A DNA stretch of 60,905 nucleotides from Candidatus Hadarchaeota archaeon (GCA_964343275.1 CAYFIY010000002.1:1-60905); one strand, 5' to 3'; counted from the stretch's first letter, positions 28,023 through 38,503 are shown. Numbers and translations are program-made. The notes: generated by a model not told the origin, from the sequence alone.

Positions 28023-28631
28023 CTATATCAGGTCGAGCTGTCTGGGAATTTTAATAATGACTTGTTTTTTGTCTACTTCGACTGTCGTCCCATTTTTTTC
28101 CGTTGAGGTGGGCAATGCAACCGTGCAGAAATACTCTCTTTTGAGGTCAGGTGCCACGGCGAATATTTCGACTGATTCGTGATAGAATTTAACCCTGACA
28201 TTGTCCTTGCTCTCCACCCCTTCGGCAGTCAAAGTTATCGTTGCCCTGCACACATCAGCCAAAACGTTGTATTCTGGAATTACCCTTTCTTTGATTTCTC
28301 GCTGAGGTAACTTTTTAGGAACTGCTTCTGATATTTCGGTTAGTGTTTTTTTAAGAGGTTGCAAAGTAGGAGCTATTTCCTTTTTTCCTTGTGGCAATTT
28401 TTCCCACCCGACGCCTGAACCAAAACGCCTAACACCAACTTTTGGTGGATTTTTTCCATTACTGGATATGGATATGCTAAAGCCACTTCTTTTTTCTACT
28501 CCTCCAGGTCTTTTAATTGCAAACCCTGGCTGATCTTCGATTAATTTTTTTGGTATTTTAAACTCCTTTTCGATATCTCCGAAGTATCTCATCATTCGCC
28601 TGAAGATTTCATAGAACGGATCGCGCGTCAT
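28023..28631 (-). CDS. Protein with a C-terminal Hsp20/alpha-crystallin-like domain
   Basis: The C-terminal ~85 aa fit the alpha-crystallin domain pattern (ATITLTAEGVESKDNVRVKFYHESVEIFAV...TVALPTSTEKNGTTVEVDKKQVIIKIPR). I placed the start at ATG 28631 (MTRDPFYEIF); the track ORF begins at GTG 28730. Confidence 0.5.
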   Translation of the reverse strand: MTRDPFYEIFRRMMRYFGDIEKEFKIPKKLIEDQPGFAIKRPGGVEKRSGFSISISSNGKNPPKVGVRRFGSGVGWEKLPQGKKEIAPTLQPLKKTLTEISEAVPKKLPQREIKERVIPEYNVLADVCRATITLTAEGVESKDNVRVKFYHESVEIFAVAPDLKREYFCTVALPTSTEKNGTTVEVDKKQVIIKIPRQLDLI

Positions 28632-28977
28632 TTTCTTCACCAAATTGATTATTATATCTGTACTTTTATAATTAAACAACGCTTCAGATAACCCCAAAAA
28701 ACTCTTCTTCACGAAAGCTACAACCGCCACCTACAAAGAAATCGCATTCTTCGCAGCATCTATCACGTTTTTCACGGTCTCCGAAAAGAAAGCAGTTGAA
28801 ACAGCACTTAGGTATGCGCTTGCCATCAAATAGATAAAATTAATTATGTAGTTAAAATATGCTGCCTAGCCTGTGTTTTATCTTTACTTTATTCTCTATT
28901 TCGATTGCAAAGAGGCACGAGGAATTCTGTTTAAGGCTCAACATCTGTTTAAATTTTAGAGTATGAGCGGTTTCGTA

Positions 28978-29376
28978 TTAGCTGGTTGGAACGACTATCA
29001 GCCGTCCCATCATTAGACCGTGAGTCGGGCTGCAGTAAATTGTGCAAAAGAACGGGAACGTGCCCGCTTTTTCCGCTGTAAACTCAATCTCGACCCACTT
29101 CCCAGGGTATAGTTTAGCATTTATATCATAACCGGAGATCGCGATACCGTGCACGACGTCTTCCGCGTATATCAACAACTTTACACTTTCACCTTGATTC
29201 ACGACTATCTCGTCAGGTTCGAAACCTCCCATCTCCGATGCCCTTGCATTTACCATAATTGTCACGTTTTCGCCTTTAGAGAGGAAAATATCTCCACCCA
29301 TGATCGGAAACGAAAGGAATGCCAGCGTGCCCAAGACCACGCACGAAAGGGCAAGGAGTTCCCATTTTTTTATCAT
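28978..29376 (-). CDS. Small membrane-anchored or secreted cupredoxin with a CuA-type ligand pattern
   Basis: 132 aa with an N-terminal hydrophobic helix. Ligands are H76 and then C111-x3-C115-x3-H119-x2-M122 (FFCTIYCSPTHGLMMG). This is the spacing seen in cytochrome oxidase subunit II and NosZ CuA sites. Confidence 0.75.
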   Translation of the reverse strand: MIKKWELLALSCVVLGTLAFLSFPIMGGDIFLSKGENVTIMVNARASEMGGFEPDEIVVNQGESVKLLIYAEDVVHGIAISGYDINAKLYPGKWVEIEFTAEKAGTFPFFCTIYCSPTHGLMMGRLIVVPTS

Positions 29377-29380
29377 TTTA

Positions 29381-31327
29381 TCACCCGAATAACACCCAGA
29401 GGAAGGCTATTCCCGACAACAAATGCAGCGTGCTCATTACTGCGGTAGCCCGCATCGCTTTACTGCGGTCGCCAAACATTTTAAAGGATATCTTATGCGT
29501 TGCCCCAATGGCCAGCGCTAAACCGACAAACAAGAAGGCTGACTGGATAAACGGAAGTAGAGTAGCACCGATTGGCGACCACATATCGCTGGCATTGGTG
29601 AAGCCTACGAAGCTCAAGATATTCCAGCCATGCCCCAACGGATCTGAGAAGGCGTAAATTGGATAGGCCCAGTTAATTAACATCAGGATCAGACCAAACG
29701 ACATCCAGAGAAGCAGTTGATAGGGAACAAGCGAGTAACTGAAAGTTAAAAATGCCCTTTTCGTCGAGACATCGGTCGCTCTGGCGGCTTTCTTGGCCAA
29801 CCAGGAGAACGCATAGAAGATCGCCGGAAAGATGATGAGCGCTATGCCCGAGATTAACAAAGCCCACAAGACCCAGTTCATGAAACCACCGGGGGTGGGA
29901 ATCAGTAGTGCTATGGTGGGGAGGTTGGCTCCCATCGTCACTCCCATGTTACCCCAGTCCTTGATCCAAAAAAACGCGCCGAAGAAAACTAGCTGATAGA
30001 CTATGACTAAGGAAAAGCGAATGAAACCCATCCAGGCCTCATCTGGCCTCTCTTGCCCCCTTTCTATGCCTTCCTTTCCCACCATCCTCAATTTAACGGT
30101 CATGTTATCGAGTGGACAGGATTTGAGACATTCATAGCATTGACCACATGGGATGTTCGAGTCGTTTCCTCCAGGGTAGAGCTTCCATGGGCATCCATAC
30201 CCCTTAGGGCTCCCTTTTAAACATTCCTTGGATTTGTGAGCATCACAAATTTTCTTATCCCTGCTTCGCACTGAGAAGATGGAGGCAGAAGCCGAGTGCC
30301 CCATGTATCCACCAGCGGGACATATGTGTCTGCAGAAGTTTCGCTGGCTGCCAGTGAAAATGAGCGGAATTGCTAAACCTAGAGCGATCAACAATATGAA
30401 GAACAACGCAGTCACCACCGGCCTCGTCACGAGCCAGGGGATTATCAGAGATATCGCAAGGAATCCTAATGTCGTAATCCACATATTGTTGAGTTTATCG
30501 GGCCACTTCCGGTTAAGCGAGAACCACTTCTTTGGCTCCCGAACCGAGTAGAGCCTTTTTCTAGATATCCAATCCCCCATTGCTGGCAGGGGACACACAG
30601 TGTCCCAAGTTCTACCACCAAAAAATATCATGAACTCGACTGCTGCAAACCATAAGACCCACACTACGACTATGGAGAAATTCAGCGCTCCAAGTGGATT
30701 CCCGAAAAGACCTATGAATATGATTACTATGAAAATAAGGAGATTTGGCAGCATTATAGCGTAATGGAACCCCCTCCATTGTAGAATCCGCTTGAGCAGT
30801 GCTCCAATTCCCCTAACTCTGAGCAGGTCAAACTCTCTGTCGATGGGGACTCCAAGAAGTGTGTTAATTGGCTCATACTTCCAATGATAGGTCAATAATC
30901 CCACGGATAGAACTGCAGCCAAAATAGAAAAGACATGGAATGAATTTAAAGCGAACGCAGGCTCCACAATCACATCCGACACCATAAACGGATGTAGGGG
31001 GCCGCAGAAGGAGGCGCACCGTAGTTTAAATTTCCCAGCCTCCTCGAAGGTGACGGGACCAACTATGGTTGTTTCCCGAGGTAGCACATCTACCTTGATA
31101 TCCTTGCCATCTATGTAGATCCCATGGGTCACGTCTAAGCTGGTCAACTTGAAAGTCACCGGCTGCCCTGCGCGAACGTAGATCCTCTCAGGAATGAAAC
31201 CGAACTGATACGCCTGGATTTCAACGGCCATGGGAGGCTCATCGGCGCTGGTCAAGGGAAAGAATGAGAAAATAAATCCCGCTGACAAAACCGATAATAT
31301 CATAAGCAATGGTATGAATCGCTTCAA
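29381..31327 (-). CDS. Fusion protein: N-terminal CuA-type cupredoxin domain plus polytopic NapH/NosH/CcoG-like polyferredoxin membrane domain
   Basis: 648 aa. It starts with a signal/anchor helix, then a cupredoxin domain with H68 and C104-x3-C108-x3-H112-x2-M115 (CASFCGPLHPFM). About 10 TM helices follow, with NapH-type CP motifs (WDTVCPLP, FCRHICPAGG) and a ferredoxin-like loop (CPWKLYPG, CGQCYECLKSCP). Confidence 0.75.
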   Translation of the reverse strand: MKRFIPLLMILSVLSAGFIFSFFPLTSADEPPMAVEIQAYQFGFIPERIYVRAGQPVTFKLTSLDVTHGIYIDGKDIKVDVLPRETTIVGPVTFEEAGKFKLRCASFCGPLHPFMVSDVIVEPAFALNSFHVFSILAAVLSVGLLTYHWKYEPINTLLGVPIDREFDLLRVRGIGALLKRILQWRGFHYAIMLPNLLIFIVIIFIGLFGNPLGALNFSIVVVWVLWFAAVEFMIFFGGRTWDTVCPLPAMGDWISRKRLYSVREPKKWFSLNRKWPDKLNNMWITTLGFLAISLIIPWLVTRPVVTALFFILLIALGLAIPLIFTGSQRNFCRHICPAGGYMGHSASASIFSVRSRDKKICDAHKSKECLKGSPKGYGCPWKLYPGGNDSNIPCGQCYECLKSCPLDNMTVKLRMVGKEGIERGQERPDEAWMGFIRFSLVIVYQLVFFGAFFWIKDWGNMGVTMGANLPTIALLIPTPGGFMNWVLWALLISGIALIIFPAIFYAFSWLAKKAARATDVSTKRAFLTFSYSLVPYQLLLWMSFGLILMLINWAYPIYAFSDPLGHGWNILSFVGFTNASDMWSPIGATLLPFIQSAFLFVGLALAIGATHKISFKMFGDRSKAMRATAVMSTLHLLSGIAFLWVLFG

Positions 31328-31761
31328 TGGACAACCGCCTTATAACATTTTTTGATTCCCCGTGTTAGGCGATGAATTTCTTTCCAAAATTTCTTGCTAT
31401 CTCCGTACTTGTCCAGTAAATCCCAAAGATACTCCGAAGTCTTTTTGCCAGTGCTGAATAGATTGTTAGCCTCTTCGACAGAACGAGACCATCTCCTGTT
31501 GGTTCTCTCGAGCACAGCAAAAAGAAGTTTTGTTCCGCCGTAATAACATGCGTCGAATTTTTTAACCTGTTCTTTACGCGCATCGACGATGTAGTGAGCA
31601 AGGTCCACTAACGGGAAACCCGCTTCTTTCTCCGGAACCTTCTGAATATAAGCCCCGGGCGTACCGGAATAGGTTATTTCTCTGGATTTCCAATAGTACT
31701 CTTCGAAATCTTTGCATGTTTCTTTAATTAACTCTTCAATGTGGATAGACATCAACACCAT
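31324..31761 (-). CDS. Hypothetical soluble protein (145 aa) within the molybdoenzyme operon
   Basis: Translationally coupled on both sides (overlaps at 31761 and 31324-31327). It has no signal peptide, TM helix or cofactor motif that I recognise. Confidence 0.5.
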   Translation of the reverse strand: MVLMSIHIEELIKETCKDFEEYYWKSREITYSGTPGAYIQKVPEKEAGFPLVDLAHYIVDARKEQVKKFDACYYGGTKLLFAVLERTNRRWSRSVEEANNLFSTGKKTSEYLWDLLDKYGDSKKFWKEIHRLTRGIKKCYKAVVH

Positions 31762-32526: not shown

Positions 32527-33726
32527 CTATGTTACATCCAGCCTATAGACATCTAGATTTCTATCGTAGCGATCCCTCACAGAAATGGGCTCCATTATCG
32601 GAACCCTCGTGACTTCATTGCTCTTTCCATCGTACCCTATGGCTTCACCATTCTGAACCTTGAATGATTCCATTGTTTTTTCAGAACTCCCGAACAGGTG
32701 AATTAGACCTAATAACTCCTCGTCATCCCTCGCCCGCTTATACGTTTTCAATGCATTCTCCCTTCCTGGTCCAAAGAGTTGGTTGAGAAAGTTGGGCGGC
32801 GCATGAATGGGTGGTATATAATATATGTTGGGTTCTGTACCGAATTGCGGGTACAGGGGGAGTGCGACTTTTTTTTCGTGCACCAAGAAGTCAATTGGGT
32901 TTTCTGGATTTGCGTTTTCTGGTAAGCTCAAAAATCCATTTATCCTTATCTTACCTATGCACATTTCGAAACATTGAGGTGATAATCCCTGCTCTATTTT
33001 AGGATAGCACCCTATGCATTTTTCGGACATCCCCCTAACCGAATTAAACATTGGTTTCTTGTAAGGACAACCTTTGACGCAACCTCGAACGCCCCTGCAG
33101 TGACCCTGGTCGATAAGGACTATTCCATCATCATCGCGCTTGTAGATTGCCTGTATCGGACACGCGGCTAGACAACCTGGAAATGTACAGTGGTTGCATA
33201 ACCGTGCAAGATAAAAAAACCAACTAGGGTGAGGCAGAGAATGGATGTATGCATCTCGAGAAATGATCTCTCCGCCTATTTCGTCTTCCCCGATGTTGGG
33301 ATGTGCCCAATCCATCTCGTCCGGGGTGATCCCCAACATTTTATCTGGTCCTCCATGTATTTTATCTCCAACCCAACGCGACCAATTACCGTTGGGTGGT
33401 TCACCCAATGTTCCTTCCCCTGACCTCGTGGCTTCGAAAATGGTCTTCCCTTTGTACACGTTGCCTTGCCATTTCTGTGGTCCGAGCAACTCAAGAAGTT
33501 TGACATCCCATCCTGTAGGGTAGAAACCATAGGGCTTGGTTTCAACGTTGTTCCACATCATGTACTCCTGGCCCAATTCATTAGTCCATGTCGTCTTGCA
33601 TGCGAGTGAACACGACTGACATCCAATACATTTGTTAGTATCGAAAACACCAGCCCACTGTCGTTTCGGCCTGCGCTCCTCATAGGGATATTCCATCTCC
33701 CTTCCAATCTGCCAGTTGTAGACCAT
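32527..33726 (-). CDS. Iron-sulfur (beta) subunit of a type II DMSO-reductase-family enzyme, NarH-like
   Basis: Four Cys groups in NarH order: CIGCQSCSLAC, CNHCTFPGCLAACP, CRGVRGCVKGCPY (a three-Cys group, as at the NarH 3Fe-4S site) and CIGCYPKIEQGLSPQCFEMC. I trimmed the start to ATG 33726 (MVYNWQIGR), just after the alpha-subunit stop. Confidence 0.9.
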   Translation of the reverse strand: MVYNWQIGREMEYPYEERRPKRQWAGVFDTNKCIGCQSCSLACKTTWTNELGQEYMMWNNVETKPYGFYPTGWDVKLLELLGPQKWQGNVYKGKTIFEATRSGEGTLGEPPNGNWSRWVGDKIHGGPDKMLGITPDEMDWAHPNIGEDEIGGEIISRDAYIHSLPHPSWFFYLARLCNHCTFPGCLAACPIQAIYKRDDDGIVLIDQGHCRGVRGCVKGCPYKKPMFNSVRGMSEKCIGCYPKIEQGLSPQCFEMCIGKIRINGFLSLPENANPENPIDFLVHEKKVALPLYPQFGTEPNIYYIPPIHAPPNFLNQLFGPGRENALKTYKRARDDEELLGLIHLFGSSEKTMESFKVQNGEAIGYDGKSNEVTRVPIMEPISVRDRYDRNLDVYRLDVT

Positions 33727-33733
33727 GGGCAAA

Positions 33734-36700
33734 CTATTCACCACTTGTTGAGATGAACCCACCGCGTAAGAATTCATTCATCGCATCATTCTCGTAACCG
33801 ACTCTTAGTCCAAGTTTGGCCGGCCTCCACTTGCCCCCATTTATACCGCCGTCTTCTGCCTTGGTGAACTTCACGAATGATTCCCGCGGTGCCCCGTTCG
33901 CACAATGGACATCCGGCGAGAACCCTTTGCCGATGACTTGTCCCATCAGTTCCTTTCTCACTAGCGTATCGGTCATAAGTGTGGGCCTCAACCAAGACCT
34001 AGTGGAGCTTTGATGACCTCCATATCTAAACATGGCCTGGTAATTGGTATTGGGGTTCCTCGCCAATCCGTCCTCCCTAGTTTCGTGTCCTCGGACGCTT
34101 CCATGGGTGGCTTGATACATGTTGAACCAAGTTTTGGAAACACCCTTAGGATGATTTGGCGAATATTTCGCACGGAGCATGCACCTCGCTACCTTGTAAT
34201 CACTAGGTTTCCCTTCCCAACCCTTGAAAGGCCTATCTTCCGGATCGGGATCACACCATATGTAATCGCCGTCCTCTATGCCCATATCTTTAGCGTCCTT
34301 AGGGTTGATCTCTACATAACCCTCATTGACCCAAGGCATTCTAGTATCTCGACGGTACATGTCACCGAACGGTCCAAACCAGACTGATAGGATACTCGTG
34401 TCAACATTGAAGCTGTGTACAGAATGTCTGAACTTTGGCGTAAGATAGATGTGGGTAAACCCTTTCTCCATAAGGGGATGGCTAGTTTTGACTATCTCAT
34501 CGGGTGTGCGCACCACGTTTCTCACTTGCCTAGTTTCGCCGGATAAGTCGGAGCTGGGCCACCCGTAGTCTTCTGGTGTCTTTGGGTTGATGAGGGGATG
34601 TGATTTAGCGATAATAGCGTTGGGTTCGTGAAAGGTTGCATCTATAGGCTCACGGTACACCGGAAGATTTTCCCCATAGTCGAGGAACTCATCCTCCTCT
34701 CTGTAAAACTCCAACCTCCCAGTTTTATTGTACCAAGGCTGAGATTCGACGCTCTGTTCGTAACCCACGAACTTGGGATAAGTCCTGGTCATTATGAGCA
34801 CTGGAATACCGTCCCTTGCCTTAGCCAGCATGTCTTCTACATCGTAGCCTTTAGTAGCGTTGCTGTGGTCGATGATGCGTTGCAAGTATGTCTTTGCTTT
34901 GTCCTCCTTGATGAACTTCCAATAATCCCTGAACATGGTGTTTCCAGTGATGTCGGCCAACTTCTCTGAAATCCCCATATAGGTCTCAACATCACCCCTG
35001 GTGTCGTAAATTCTTGGAATCCCCGAAATGGGTGCCACCATCACGAATGGATTGGTAACGGAAGCGGTCAGGTCATGTACATTATATTCCCCCCAGCTAT
35101 CCACAGGTAGGACAATATCTGCGTACTCGCAGCTGGCAGTCCACCACCACTCGTTGACCACCAACGTCTCTATCTTCCTATTCCTCAAGAGGTTCATCAC
35201 CAAGTCGTAATGCCCCTTGGCGTTTCCGAGGAGGGAGTTAGATCCAGCGAACATCAGGAACTTGGTGGGAAAGGGCATGTGGGTATTTCCGAGAAAATAT
35301 TTCCCGTGAACCTTCAGCGGGCTATCACCATGTGCATAGAAGTGAGCCGACTGCATGGCAAAGTAGGTCTTGACGTTAGCCGGTTTACTTGGGTCCAAGG
35401 TGATGTTGAATGGGTCCTCCGCTATATAATGCGGAGTACCGTTAAAGAGCGCGGCACGATAGTTTCCCGCATAGCTGCCGACATTCCCGCCGAAAAAGCC
35501 TACATTCTTAGTAAGAGACGCAACTAGGAATATCGCCCTATCTTTTAGGTCTCCGTTGAACATCTGGTTTGGCCCCATGCCTGTAGTAAAGAGCACCTTC
35601 TGGGGGTTGGCTGCCAACGCCCTTGCCAAGTTCACGATTGCGTCCTTGGAGGCCCAAGTGACATTGGAAGTGCTTTCTACATCCCAAGTATCCGTGAGGT
35701 GTTGCTTTATCAAATCAAATATAGGCCGCACTTTGACATTTTCGCCTGTTGTAAGGGTGACATTAAATTCGCCATCCAACGCCGGGTCCAAACCCTTGGG
35801 TGTAAACCTATCGCCTATATCGTCCCTTGAAACAGCTGCTGGTTTCCCAGAGTTTCTGTCCCATACGACGAAATCACCCCATTCGTCTCTCATAGTTTCG
35901 GTAACGGTCGGACCGTCCACGTTAGTGGCAAACGGTGCTGGGGCCCTCTCGCCTTTTTTAACCACGTTGGTGACGGTGAGTTCTGCATTCTGGTACCCCG
36001 GTATCACCTCGGTAGCCCTGAGCAATTTTCTGGAATTCATATTCACCAGGAAAGGAAGGTCGGTGTAACCCTTGACAAAGTCCCTGTCGTAGAGCTCTTC
36101 TGTCATTATCACTTGAGCCAGTCCTAACGCGAAAGCTGGGTCCGTCCCGGGCCTTAGGATGATCATCTCGTCAGCTTTAGATGAGGTGCAGTTGTAATCC
36201 GTGGTAATTACGACTATTTTCGTGCCCTTCAGTCTAGCCTCGGTCAGCCAGTGAGCGTCGGGCATCTTAGTGCATATCCAGTTCATACCCCAACAAATCA
36301 CGATGTTTGAGTGCTCCACGTTTGCCAAGTCGAATTCTACGGTTTGTTGTCCCGTTACCATAGGATGTCCGGGTGGTAGGTCGGTGTGCCAAGTATAGTT
36401 ATCAAATCCAGTTCCGCCGACTGCCTCGTCGGCTCCCACACCGCGCACAAATGAGTCCAAGAGAGCCATAGAATTTGCGAGCCTGTAAGCCCCGAAAAGC
36501 TTTATCATGCCCAGCAGGGGCATGCCACCGCGAAACTTCATAGCCCGTACCCCTGCGCCCCCCATCTTCTCTATCATTTTTTCGTCGTATTGCTGTAACC
36601 GTAGAAGATTTGCCCCGTTGCCTCCAGAGTATGTCCTAGCTATATCTATCATGGCCTTGGCGATGAGCTCATACGCTTCATCCCATGAAACACGGACCCA

Positions 36701-37048
36701 CGTGTCTTCACCCCTGTTGAAGAGCTCGAGGGGCGGACGCCCATCAGCTCCGCGTGGAAAATCATGATCGACCCACTGCTTAAAGCCGCTTCTCACAAGC
36801 GGATATTTTACCCTTCGATCTCCGTAAAACCTTTCAGCAATGGCGATACCCTTGTTGCATATCCTCGGATCCCACCTCGCACTTACCTTTGTCCCGTAAA
36901 GGTCGGTTGCATCCCGGTACCTCTGGCTCGGCCCAATGCGGGTTATCACCCCGTTCTTCACGTATGCCTTCAAGTAGCAATTGTGCGTGTCATTCGGAGT
37001 GCATGGAAAAATAAAAGTATCGTCAAAGGCGAATATGTCCCTATACAA
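33734..37048 (-). CDS. Molybdopterin catalytic (alpha) subunit of a type II DMSO-reductase-family enzyme (NarG/NxrA/PcrA/EbdA-like)
   Basis: The 1104-aa track ORF aligns by eye to NarG landmarks: an FS0 region ending in [13 protein letters not shown], and the Mo-ligand Asp context TKMPDAHW (NarG has TRTPDAHF). The same frame stays open upstream to 37252 and encodes a twin-arginine signal, so 37048 (TTG) is only the first canonical start codon. Confidence 0.9.
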
Positions 37049-37264
37049 TTTCTCCCAATCTCGTGTAGGATAGTACTCTAAGGGGTTTATTTCTGGCTTG
37101 GGTGTAAACCAGCGGAATACGCTATCTGCACCTAAATATGCAAGCGCCCCAACTGCTCCGCCTATGCCTACGTATTTTAAAAACTGTCTTCTAGTTATCT
37201 CCTTAATTTTCTCACCTATGATTTCAACATTAGAGAGTGATGAAATTATTTCTCAGAAATGACA

Positions 37265-37675: not shown

Positions 37676-38503
37676 TTACGATATATCGGCTTGGGGTAAC
37701 CTTACTGGATTCTGGTGCTGCCACGGCCTAACGTGACCGAGCAACTCGTGGGATACTCTAGAAGGCGGCTCCCATTCAAACCCACGCGCGTCCGCTGGGC
37801 TAGCGTCAAGGATTGCAAAGTTCATTACGCGTTTGGGGTCCAGAGTAACGGATACTAATCCAGAGTGTGGGTTCAGGCTCATCGGCGCTAATAATAGGCC
37901 TCGCCTGACCCTAAGCTCAGAGAGGAGGCAGGTTTCTTTTCCTCTTGTAATCTCAATGGGGGAAATGCCGCCATCGACGAGAATGTCTGAAGATCGCTCG
38001 CGTAGAACGCTCACAATATAACTCGTAAGACCATCGTGCAAATCATGAAGGGCATCGATACTGCCGGCCCATATCTCGCATGGGATGGTCTCTAGAGGAA
38101 CCGCCAAATCGAAACCCAGTTCCCCAGAGTATTTCACCCACGGTTCGGAAATCCCGGCTTGTTCCAACGCCTCGATTGTCCATACTGTCGCTTCTTGAGT
38201 AAACTTTAACCCACCTTGTTTAGCCCGGATCGTCCACACCAAATCTCGGCCCACCGGTGTGGCCAAATCCCCCCAACGGTATCTCCAATAGGAGCAGTAA
38301 AAAGCTGACGCCCCCATTGCTAAAACTCGGTCCAGCTCAGCGACTTTGTCGATGTGTATTGGGGCCTGCGAGCTCCCGTCAAGATGTCGTTGAATACTTC
38401 TTACGTTATGGTTGTAAAAACTGCATTCTCGAACGCCATTGATACCACTAGCACTCGCGAAGTCCGTGATCGCTCGTTTGACGTCTAGACGTTGATAATA
38501 CAT
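37676..38503 (-). CDS. PriS-like archaeo-eukaryotic primase superfamily protein with substituted catalytic residues
   Basis: 275 aa that follows PriS landmarks in order: RECSF...RH, AFYCSYW, DLVWTIRAK (where PriS has hhhDhDA), YSGELGFDLAV (where PriS has SGxGxH), VDGGISPIE, and RRGLLLAPMSLNPHSGL (where PriS has RhhRhPxSxHxKxG). Confidence 0.7.
   Translation of the reverse strand: MYYQRLDVKRAITDFASASGINGVRECSFYNHNVRSIQRHLDGSSQAPIHIDKVAELDRVLAMGASAFYCSYWRYRWGDLATPVGRDLVWTIRAKQGGLKFTQEATVWTIEALEQAGISEPWVKYSGELGFDLAVPLETIPCEIWAGSIDALHDLHDGLTSYIVSVLRERSSDILVDGGISPIEITRGKETCLLSELRVRRGLLLAPMSLNPHSGLVSVTLDPKRVMNFAILDASPADARGFEWEPPSRVSHELLGHVRPWQHQNPVRLPQADIS

Follow-up and report, generated by a model that had tools for sequence, protein, structure and literature searches.

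It has been proposed that NapH-like membrane proteins with an N-terminal extracytosolic FMN-binding domain serve as modular conduits, with NirS and RdhA among the reductases to which they lead (Méheust et al. 2021, PMC8238504). Bacterial nitrite oxidoreductase (NXR) gene clusters have conserved cupredoxin genes, and copper carriers have been proposed for them (PMC3578206). The electron route to extracytoplasmic enzymes is unresolved for NapH, NosR, PceC and periplasmic NXR, and the membrane partner of NXR has been debated since the first genomes. In this work we analyzed a gene on a 60,905-nucleotide stretch of DNA from a Candidatus Hadarchaeota archaeon (GCA_964343275.1, CAYFIY010000002.1:1-60905; hereafter the window). 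It lies on the minus strand at 29381..31327, as the fifth of six genes in an operon with a molybdoenzyme, and encodes a fusion of a CuA-type cupredoxin with a NapH-like iron-sulfur (Fe-S) membrane protein. Our favored reading, held with moderate confidence, is that this protein is a membrane electron-transfer module linking the cytoplasmic face to outer copper carriers, with the NxrAB-type molybdoenzyme, acting as a nitrate reductase, as the probable end user at this locus. The literature search returned no description of a CuA- or cupredoxin-NapH fusion; the Chloroflexi NirS paper concerns cupredoxin-cytochrome-NirS fusions and not the protein studied here.

Architecture of the fusion protein

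The protein divides into the following parts, all on the minus strand.

29381..31327, minus: 648-residue fusion protein of signal or anchor, CuA cupredoxin, NapH-like Fe-S membrane core and C-terminal domain of five transmembrane (TM) helices; from the open reading frame (ORF) translation, 80 homologues and an AlphaFold2 (AF2) model
31244..31327, minus: residues 1-28, Sec-type signal peptide or signal anchor (MKRFIPLLMILSVLSAGFIFSFFPLTSA); hydropathy peak at 4-22 preceded by K2/R3, model helix at 5-21
30959..31240, minus: residues 30-123, predicted extracytoplasmic CuA-type cupredoxin; ligands H68, C104, C108, H112 and M115, profile and Foldseek matches
30983-31018, minus: copper loop of the cupredoxin, containing C104-x3-C108-x3-H112-x2-M115
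30761..30949, minus: residues 127-189, TM2 and K/R-rich cytoplasmic linker; break point between head and body in split versions
30083..30760, minus: residues 190-415, NapH-like core; NCBIfam NapH, Pfam Fer4_5, hhalign against E. coli NapH, Cys conservation
29384..30055, minus: residues 425-648, C-terminal 5-TM domain, family not assigned; Pfam null, phmmer clusters, alignment conservation

The gene is a single uninterrupted ORF. Its TTG start codon overlaps the stop of the upstream gene (ATTGA), and the closest homologue, P0002, begins at the same MKR, which supports this start. A first-pass annotation of the window had described a cupredoxin joined to a polyferredoxin membrane protein of about ten helices, and the residue and motif positions that it gave were all correct. 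The cupredoxin ligands H68, C104, C108, H112 and M115 lie in RCASFCGPLHPFM, C245 lies in WDTVCPLP, C332 and C336 lie in FCRHICPAGG, and the Fe-S loop motif C394GQC397YEC400LKSC404P lies within CGQCYECLKSCP. The hydropathy scan found the N-terminal signal or anchor (4-22) followed by ten TM helices.

Judged by fold and ligand set, the head is a genuine CuA-type cupredoxin, with a resemblance far above chance. The ligand pattern H-(x~35)-C-x3-C-x3-H-x2-M is present in the target; the ligands are kept in 27-32 of 33 homologues, and the complete motif is retained in 55 of 62 full-length copies. A family profile matched subunit II of the Thermus ba3 oxidase with an E-value of 2e-19, and the copper loops aligned with each other (ba3 loop CNQYCGLGHQNM). 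Foldseek returned only CuA domains: the top matches 2cua, 5u7n and NosZ had a probability of 1.00 and TM-scores of 0.72-0.75 normalized on the target, with 33% identity and a TM-score of 0.72 for 2cua and an rmsd of 1.5 Å over 97 residues for the CuA domain of NosZ. The NCBIfam models of CoxB and NosZ also match the head, although all Pfam and NCBIfam matches of the single target sequence fall under the curated cut-offs; its PF00116 score was 20.0 bits, with the gathering score at 22. A precomputed match to PF00116 is on record for many homologues. We infer that metal occupies the predicted CuA and Fe-S sites.

The loop has diverged in a subgroup of Archaeoglobaceae and related lineages (L003, L016, L017; P0044, P0047, P0051, P0053, P0056), where it reads R-D-P-V-x-C-D-A-L-N-P-F-(D/E)-Y. 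Here C104 is replaced by D, H112 by N and M115 by D/E, and H68, C108, D65, K99 and R103 are kept. These proteins would have either a different metal site or a non-copper head. The loci of this subgroup adjoin a different type II dimethyl sulfoxide reductase (DMSOR) together with an EB_dh subunit.

Profile comparisons place the family in the Fer4_5 NapH-like superfamily as a divergent branch. With hhalign, E. coli NapH was matched at 96.8% probability (E 2.5e-10, 99 columns), in an alignment that spans the last NapH TM helix, the CX3CP motif and both ferredoxin motifs. NCBIfam NapH models match the target at 231-409 and 282-415, with 23.9 and 24.0 bits compared with cut-offs of 213 and 234, and Pfam Fer4_5 (PF12801) gave 18.4 bits against a gathering score of 22. 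Fer4_5 was matched by 48 of 62 relatives at E<=1e-3, and most homologues have a precomputed PF12801 match. The four-TM core followed by a cytoplasmic Fe-S domain, as found in NapH/MauN (TIGR02163; PRK09477), is present in the target. The first-pass annotation had extended the NapH-like body over all of the membrane part; this holds for TM3-TM6 and the Fe-S loop, whereas the last five TM helices (425-648) form a separate domain.

Within the core, TM3-TM4 are followed by D242-x2-C245-P, TM5-TM6 by C332-x3-C336-P and the cytoplasmic Fe-S domain, whose putative ligands are C361, H364, C369 and C379-P, then C394-x2-C397-x2-C400-x3-C404-P. Of the two C-x3-C-P motifs of NapH, the target keeps the second; as its first Cys-Pro (CP) motif, the family has C-x2-C-P and the target D-x2-C-P. 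Likewise, instead of two canonical C-x2-C-x2-C-x3-C-P ferredoxin motifs there is one (394-405), the other being the degenerate C361-x2-(H/C)364-x4-C369-x9-C379-P. We evaluated conservation in two alignments, A1 with 33 and A2 with 62 sequences. At position 364, the 33 sequences of A1 have 27 His and 6 Cys, and A2 has 32 His and 22 Cys, together 54 of 62 sequences; this is how a ligand position behaves. The Fe-S loop hence probably holds two ferredoxin-type [4Fe-4S] clusters, the first with a degenerate motif. The first CP motif reads C-x2-C-P in 60 of 61 full-length copies, and only the target has an aspartate there (D242; codon GAC, 30602-30604, minus strand). Since GAC is two base changes away from a Cys codon, a simple sequencing error is unlikely at this position. 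Aspartate is able to ligate Fe-S clusters.

The topology was predicted from the charge distribution. The K/R-rich loops 146-189, 238-281, 324-434, 505-532 and 616-628 all lie on one side of the membrane in the hydropathy scan, and as these five loops are opposite the cupredoxin, the cupredoxin is predicted outside and the Fe-S loop in the cytoplasm. The Cys-rich loop 324-434, which follows TM3-TM6 (190-323), alone holds 17 K/R residues. Furthermore, some relatives carry an NAD(P)H-dependent flavoprotein inserted into this loop, which must be cytoplasmic and so fixes the side of the loop. The signal or anchor, the positive-inside pattern and these relatives thus agree on an extracytoplasmic cupredoxin, and a cytoplasmic location of this domain, which would have spoken against the fusion as first described, is not what the prediction gives. 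The AF2 model, built on the alignment of 33 homologues, reached a pLDDT of 88 and a pTM of 0.91; its helices agree with the hydropathy scan, and the cupredoxin strands comprise residues 33-122. Neither by fold (Foldseek) nor by profile did we find a solved structure that resembles the membrane part; only the cupredoxin domain has matches.

Residues 425-648 have no Pfam match, even at E<=5. An exhaustive phmmer search of 1.84 billion representatives retrieved this domain in only 155 clusters, confined to the target family. In all matched proteins of sufficient length to judge, it is located at the C-terminus, and Fer4_5 accompanies it in 48 of the 62 longest. P535, D562 and P563 are found without exception in both alignments; for W541 and F544 this is true of A1, and a minority of the A2 sequences (11 and 15 of 62, respectively) have His instead. 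The outer-face loop contains the conserved motif SDPxGWGWN, and Q595 hardly varies. We considered haem b in the TM domains and rejected it for the target, which has no conserved His pair; H566, H611 and H635 are not conserved.

Relatives, operon and gene neighborhoods

A word-indexed protein search returned 80 relatives from independent assemblies, about 60 of them full-length (630-690 residues), with 41-77% identity. Scanning one genome per species of the GTDB yielded 262 loci. Archaeal carriers are Archaeoglobi, Hecatella, Methanomassiliicoccales, Thermofilaceae, Thaumarchaeota and Asgard lineages; bacterial carriers are Chloroflexota, Desulfobacterota, Acidobacteriota, Planctomycetota and Methylomirabilota. 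The fusion is thus genuine and conserved, with a continuous reading frame in the target. It had been called unusual, which is appropriate insofar as it is uncharacterized, but with these 262 loci it is common. The source annotations of the relatives read polyferredoxin, plastocyanin/ferredoxin, plastocyanin or hypothetical. Thermoflexus and a dozen other lineages have two adjacent genes in place of one: the first encodes signal, CuA and one TM helix, the second a body of 433-506 residues. Head and body are in each case separated within the cytoplasmic linker that follows TM2, so that the upstream gene ends past the TM2 equivalent. This pattern of fusion and fission is independent evidence that head and body work together.

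We surveyed the modules of 62 long proteins from the representative library that carry the C-terminal domain. Cupredoxin models were matched by at least 17 of them. An FMN_bind domain was found neither in the target, with Pfam and NCBIfam, nor in any of the 62 relatives; CuA occupies that position. In P0173 (729 residues), a cytochrome c head (CVYCHG) replaces CuA. This protein also has His at the TM9 positions equivalent to W541 and F544 and may represent a haem- or metal-binding variant of the C-terminal domain. In P0102 and P0128, the cupredoxin is preceded by a fused TlpA-like thioredoxin. Six or seven of the 62 relatives contain a GltD-like NAD(P)H module (Fer4_20 and Pyr_redox_2, FAD/Fe-S) inserted in the Fe-S loop, among them P0088, P0097, P0103, P0107 and P0128 with 920-1248 residues; the order in P0088 is CuA, WCxxCP, CxxxCP, GltD-like flavoprotein, Fe-S motifs and 5-TM tail. 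On paper, a single polypeptide would in such members connect NAD(P)H in the cytoplasm with CuA on the outer side. The much stronger reducing power of NAD(P)H compared with CuA argues for outward electron flow in these relatives. As read from its predicted modules, this arrangement shows electrons entering from the cytoplasm, at least in the relatives with the GltD module.

In the window, the six genes follow each other in the order nxrA-nxrB-chaperone-c7-target-CuA, overlapping or 4-10 nt apart, and a 247-nt AT-rich gap follows the last gene. The features besides the target are as follows.

33734..37207, minus: NxrA-like molybdopterin alpha subunit with a twin-arginine translocation (Tat) signal; matches 7b04_B (Kuenenia NxrA) with E 1e-274 over its full length, including the signal region
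37130-37207, minus: Tat signal region of NxrA, KEITRRQFLKYVGIGGAVGALAYLGA, in frame upstream of the canonical start
32527..33777, minus: NxrB-like Fe-S beta subunit, 416 residues as listed; 7b04_A E 2.4e-112, TIGR03478
31761..32516, minus: NarJ/TorD-type chaperone for enzymes of the type II DMSOR family, 251 residues; PF02613 4.8e-21, TIGR03482 3e-30
31324..31761, minus: c7, 145-residue soluble helical protein; 4-nt overlap with the target start, directly upstream of the target in 15 archaeal loci
28978..29376, minus: stand-alone CuA cupredoxin of 132 residues with N-terminal anchor and the motif H-...-C-x3-C-x3-H-x2-M; 4 nt downstream of the target

The molybdoenzyme operon in which the first-pass annotation had placed the protein was hence recovered, with NxrA, NxrB and the NarJ/TorD-type chaperone upstream. 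The nxrA ORF with a canonical start begins at 37048, and the in-frame Tat signal KEITRRQFLKYVG has no preceding ATG, GTG or TTG. The true start is probably the ATT at 37207, 4 nt after GGTGA, where the alignment with Kuenenia NxrA begins. ORF callers restricted to canonical starts would truncate NxrA by 53 residues, with loss of the export signal. The listed NxrB ORF starts 44 nt inside nxrA. Homology with Kuenenia NxrB sets in at residue 17 (region 33726-33777), and the true start is probably Met18 (MVYNWQIG...). From the Tat signal on NxrA it follows that the molybdoenzyme and both CuA centers are on the same outer side. The 132-residue CuA protein scored above the cut-off for Pfam Cupredoxin_1 and COX2 and matched the C-terminal domain of NosZ (1e-19) and ba3 subunit II (3e-11). 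For c7, there was no Pfam or NCBIfam match and no sequence match in the PDB; its alignment has no metal-binding motif, and the word-indexed search found only two homologues. An AF2 model of c7 (two-sequence alignment, pLDDT 76) shows a helical bundle, for which the best Foldseek E-value of 0.22 is uninformative. This operon contains no haem-b gamma subunit, cytochrome c, NapG, NapC or NapB. The flanking ORFs of 235 residues (28023-28730, minus; no Pfam match) and 275 residues (37676-38503, minus) are probably outside the operon, given gaps of about 250 and 470 nt. Otherwise, the window carries genes usual for an archaeal chromosome (H+-PPase, PheRS, GatE, TyrRS, Mrp-like antiporter subunits), and an Rfam scan of the window gave no matches.

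For the relatives, we predicted ORFs in 85 loci and grouped them into clusters, of which the recurring ones were annotated; the counts refer to 73 distinct loci. The most constant partner, by these approximate counts, is a small CuA protein, which lies within five genes of the target homologue in 53 of 73 loci. In bacteria, the partner is often a CuA-cytochrome c fusion of about 330 residues. Such anchored CuA proteins with a C-terminal cytochrome c are encoded directly downstream in L032 (11742-12794), L033 (12042-12992), L036 (3939-4958) and about 12 other bacterial loci; they resemble subunit II of caa3 oxidases and have no adjacent subunit I. Among the molybdoenzyme loci, L013 from a Thaumarchaeota metagenome-assembled genome (MAG) has an NXR-type alpha subunit (55% identity) in a different gene order and with an EB_dh gamma subunit, and Archaeoglobi loci have a different type II DMSOR alpha subunit (24% identity) with EB_dh. 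In Archaeoglobi, c7 is found as the C-terminal domain of a protein of about 370-440 residues (L003 7701-8864, L015, L016, L017), whose His-rich, multi-TM N-terminal domain has no Pfam match.

Other loci have different enzymes. Locus L012 (1442-3211) of a Thermofilaceae MAG encodes a 589-residue protein of N-terminal anchor, CuA-type cupredoxin and cytochrome d1 (NirS-type) beta-propeller (PF02239, E 4.5e-99), which looks like a nitrite reductase with copper replacing the cytochrome c electron-entry domain; its gene is located directly upstream of the c7-target-CuA module. Anaerolineales loci have a reductive dehalogenase (RdhA) with RdhB and a NapC/NirT cytochrome, Desulfobacterota loci multihaem cytochromes with CcdA and TlpA-like thioredoxins, and a few loci CopA, NosL and YHS-like genes. 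The first-pass annotation had suggested, as one of two roles, a quinol:cupredoxin oxidoreductase that acts as membrane anchor. As a general description, a dedicated anchor of the molybdoenzyme is too narrow, and we rejected it, because a molybdoenzyme is present in only 6 of the 73 loci and the relative with 77% identity has none adjacent.

Proposed electron transfer and its alternatives

If the protein is an electron-transfer module, electrons would enter at the cytoplasmic or membrane side, either from quinol, as has been proposed for NapH, or from a cytoplasmic donor. In relatives with the GltD module, NAD(P)H would be the donor via the inserted FAD/Fe-S module. These relatives point at least as strongly to a cytoplasmic donor as to quinol. 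Electrons would then pass through the Fe-S clusters and across the membrane to the fused CuA center. For this crossing, a third cluster held by the four CP-motif cysteines is one candidate; the invariant Trp residues of TM4 and TM9 together with the outer GWGW loop are another. The conserved Trp residues include W223, W226, W241, W541 and W568. From the fused CuA, electrons could go to the co-encoded free CuA cupredoxin and on to the extracytoplasmic enzyme encoded nearby, here the Tat-exported NxrAB-type enzyme, which would work as a reductase of nitrate or another oxyanion. We infer which donor is used, whether electrons flow outward in this organism and, above all, by which route they pass the bilayer. 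Of the two roles suggested initially, electron transfer or copper maturation, the former is much better supported, because the head can be swapped for a cytochrome c, an NAD(P)H module can be inserted, and the neighbors are CuA-cytochrome c, CuA-d1, RdhA and multihaem proteins. Electron transfer over copper also agrees with the known presence of cupredoxin genes in periplasmic NXR clusters (PMC3578206).

Several observations weigh against this assignment. For the crossing step, no cofactor is evident inside the membrane, a gap that is the same in NapH and NosR. The target alone lacks the first Cys of the first CP motif, and D242 could weaken a cluster held by the four CP cysteines. The target itself is also without the NAD(P)H module. 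Only 6 of 73 loci were found to have a molybdoenzyme alpha subunit, and next to the closest relative (77% identity) there are only cupredoxins; the neighborhood statistics come from a crude procedure for ORF prediction and clustering. Known CuA centers typically have potentials of about +250 mV and could not reduce a corrinoid dehalogenase, so that the association with RdhA misfits a simple path from CuA to the enzyme. Finally, as NXR-type enzymes are reversible, the flow could be inward.

Such an inward flow would make NXR oxidize nitrite outside and pass electrons from NxrB over the free CuA and the fused CuA to the Fe-S core and into the quinone pool or the cytoplasm, with the target as the entry point or membrane dock of a nitrite-oxidizing chain. 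The alpha and beta subunits are indeed closest to bona fide nitrite oxidoreductase, an enzyme known to be reversible (PMC10547907), cupredoxins are conserved in the NXR clusters of nitrite oxidizers, and without a gamma subunit some membrane partner is needed. However, the nitrite/nitrate couple is far more oxidizing than quinones or Fe-S clusters, so that this direction needs an energy input. Relatives with the fused NAD(P)H module could reasonably run only outward, other partners such as the d1 nitrite reductase and RdhA are reductases, and no terminal oxidase is found among the annotated ORFs of the window. We thus regard inward flow as unlikely. In a copper-handling role, the protein would reduce Cu(II) in the manner of CcoG, or it would serve maturation by maintaining Cu(I) or the thiols of CuA sites in the reduced state outside, so that neighboring copper proteins receive their metal. 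CcoG belongs to the same broad class of polyferredoxin membrane proteins, genes for CopA, NosL, YHS-like, PCYCGC, TlpA-like and CcdA proteins occur in some loci, P0102 and P0128 carry the TlpA-like thioredoxin ahead of the cupredoxin, and several cupredoxins cluster nearby. Yet the head has the full ligand set of a binuclear CuA electron-transfer center and not a chaperone-type site, a cytochrome c can replace it, and its partners are redox enzymes and CuA-cytochrome c fusions. Any CuA or cytochrome c system needs TlpA and CcdA for its own assembly, and no FixG/CcoG-specific domains were detected by Pfam and NCBIfam; copper handling appears improbable.

The CP cysteine pairs might otherwise act like DsbD or CcdA in a thiol-disulfide relay that exports reducing equivalents, the Fe-S domain serving only for recharging. 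Hardly any family member deviates at these four cysteines, which directly follow TM4 and TM6, and CcdA and TlpA-like genes co-occur in Desulfobacterota loci. But a dithiol relay would be interrupted in the target, where Asp replaces one of the four, the motifs are predicted to face the cytoplasm, and both CuA and cytochrome c heads are one-electron carriers, which makes this a very remote explanation. Split versions in some bacteria might also suggest that an assembly error or frameshift has joined a cupredoxin gene to a polyferredoxin gene. We found no frameshift. The frame is continuous, about 60 independent full-length homologues from a wide range of phyla and assemblies share the architecture, and the split versions are consistently divided at another point, after TM2, so that we consider an artefact refuted.

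Returning to outward electron transfer, we tentatively extend it to the whole family, which may be an unrecognized transmembrane conduit free of haem and flavin that leads from NAD(P)H, another cytoplasmic donor or quinol over Fe-S clusters and the bilayer to an outer CuA. Crossing would be by the CP-cysteine cluster, a Trp ladder or both, and the 5-TM domain would be part of the path or a quinone site. If this is true, in cytochrome-poor archaea the conduit replaces the bc1/cytochrome c link to extracytoplasmic N-oxide reductases, the GltD-fused form is a single-polypeptide NAD(P)H:extracellular-cupredoxin oxidoreductase, and CuA has a new biological context. The family would show how nitrate and nitrite reduction is wired with copper in cytochrome-poor archaea. 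CuA has a distinctive optical and electron paramagnetic resonance signature, so that the arrival of electrons outside would be directly readable in this family, and the natural variants with NAD(P)H input would make it possible to follow electron transfer across the membrane in a defined system of one protein. As the family is widespread in Chloroflexota and Desulfobacterota of subsurface and sediment and in several archaeal phyla, its correct annotation would alter the metabolic reconstruction of many MAGs.

Comparison with known systems

The architecture is uncharacterized but widespread across archaea and bacteria, and by its motifs and domain matches the target falls outside NapH proper, NosR/PceC and CcoG. 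Its head shares fold and ligands (H...C-x3-C-x3-H-x2-M) with subunit II of haem-copper oxidases (Thermus ba3) and with the CuA domain of NosZ, and like these it would face outward on a membrane tether. In contrast to them, it is not joined to a haem-copper subunit I or a CuZ propeller but fused to an Fe-S membrane protein. The contexts of CuA that we are aware of are oxidases, NosZ, qCuA-NOR and PmoD; to our knowledge, fusion to an Fe-S membrane protein is not among them. CcoG/FixG likewise combines multiple TM helices and cytoplasmic [4Fe-4S] clusters with a connection to copper enzymes. However, CcoG has no CuA head, and the contexts of the target family are mostly redox enzymes and not assembly genes of the cbb3 oxidase. 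Neither the FixG-type Fe-S domain nor the Ig-like FixG_C domain gave a Pfam or NCBIfam match in the target at E<=0.01; the C-terminus is instead the 5-TM domain.

With the periplasmic NXR clusters of bacteria (Kuenenia, Nitrospira, Nitrospina), the operon shares close NxrA and NxrB homologues, a TorD-like chaperone and copper proteins alongside. NxrC (haem b), cytochromes c and a bd-like protein, which those clusters employ, are absent from the target operon; in their place it encodes the CuA-Fe-S membrane protein and the free CuA protein. NapH has a homologous TM, CX3CP and Fe-S region, and under the favored reading both proteins would serve a periplasmic nitrate-reducing molybdoenzyme. Nevertheless, the target scores ten-fold below the family cut-offs (24 versus 213-234 bits) and has 648 residues compared with 287 for NapH, owing to the added CuA head and 5-TM tail. 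Its operon is without NapG, NapC and NapB, and the partner enzyme is of NXR/Nar type and not NapA.

The closest parallel is found in NosR and PceC (RdhC). As in the target, an exported N-terminal one-electron domain is tethered by a TM helix to a NapH-type core that has CP motifs, with a polyferredoxin on the cytoplasmic side, and NosR and PceC too associate in a modular way with extracytoplasmic reductases (NirS-type, RdhA, N-oxide enzymes). They differ in that the head of the target is CuA and not a flavinylated FMN_bind domain, and in that the target adds the family-specific 5-TM C-terminal domain. Moreover, the first CP motif of the target family is C-x2-C-P, and its first ferredoxin motif is degenerate with a His/Cys ligand position. 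By analogy, the target is thus the copper-headed counterpart of the flavin-headed NosR and PceC.

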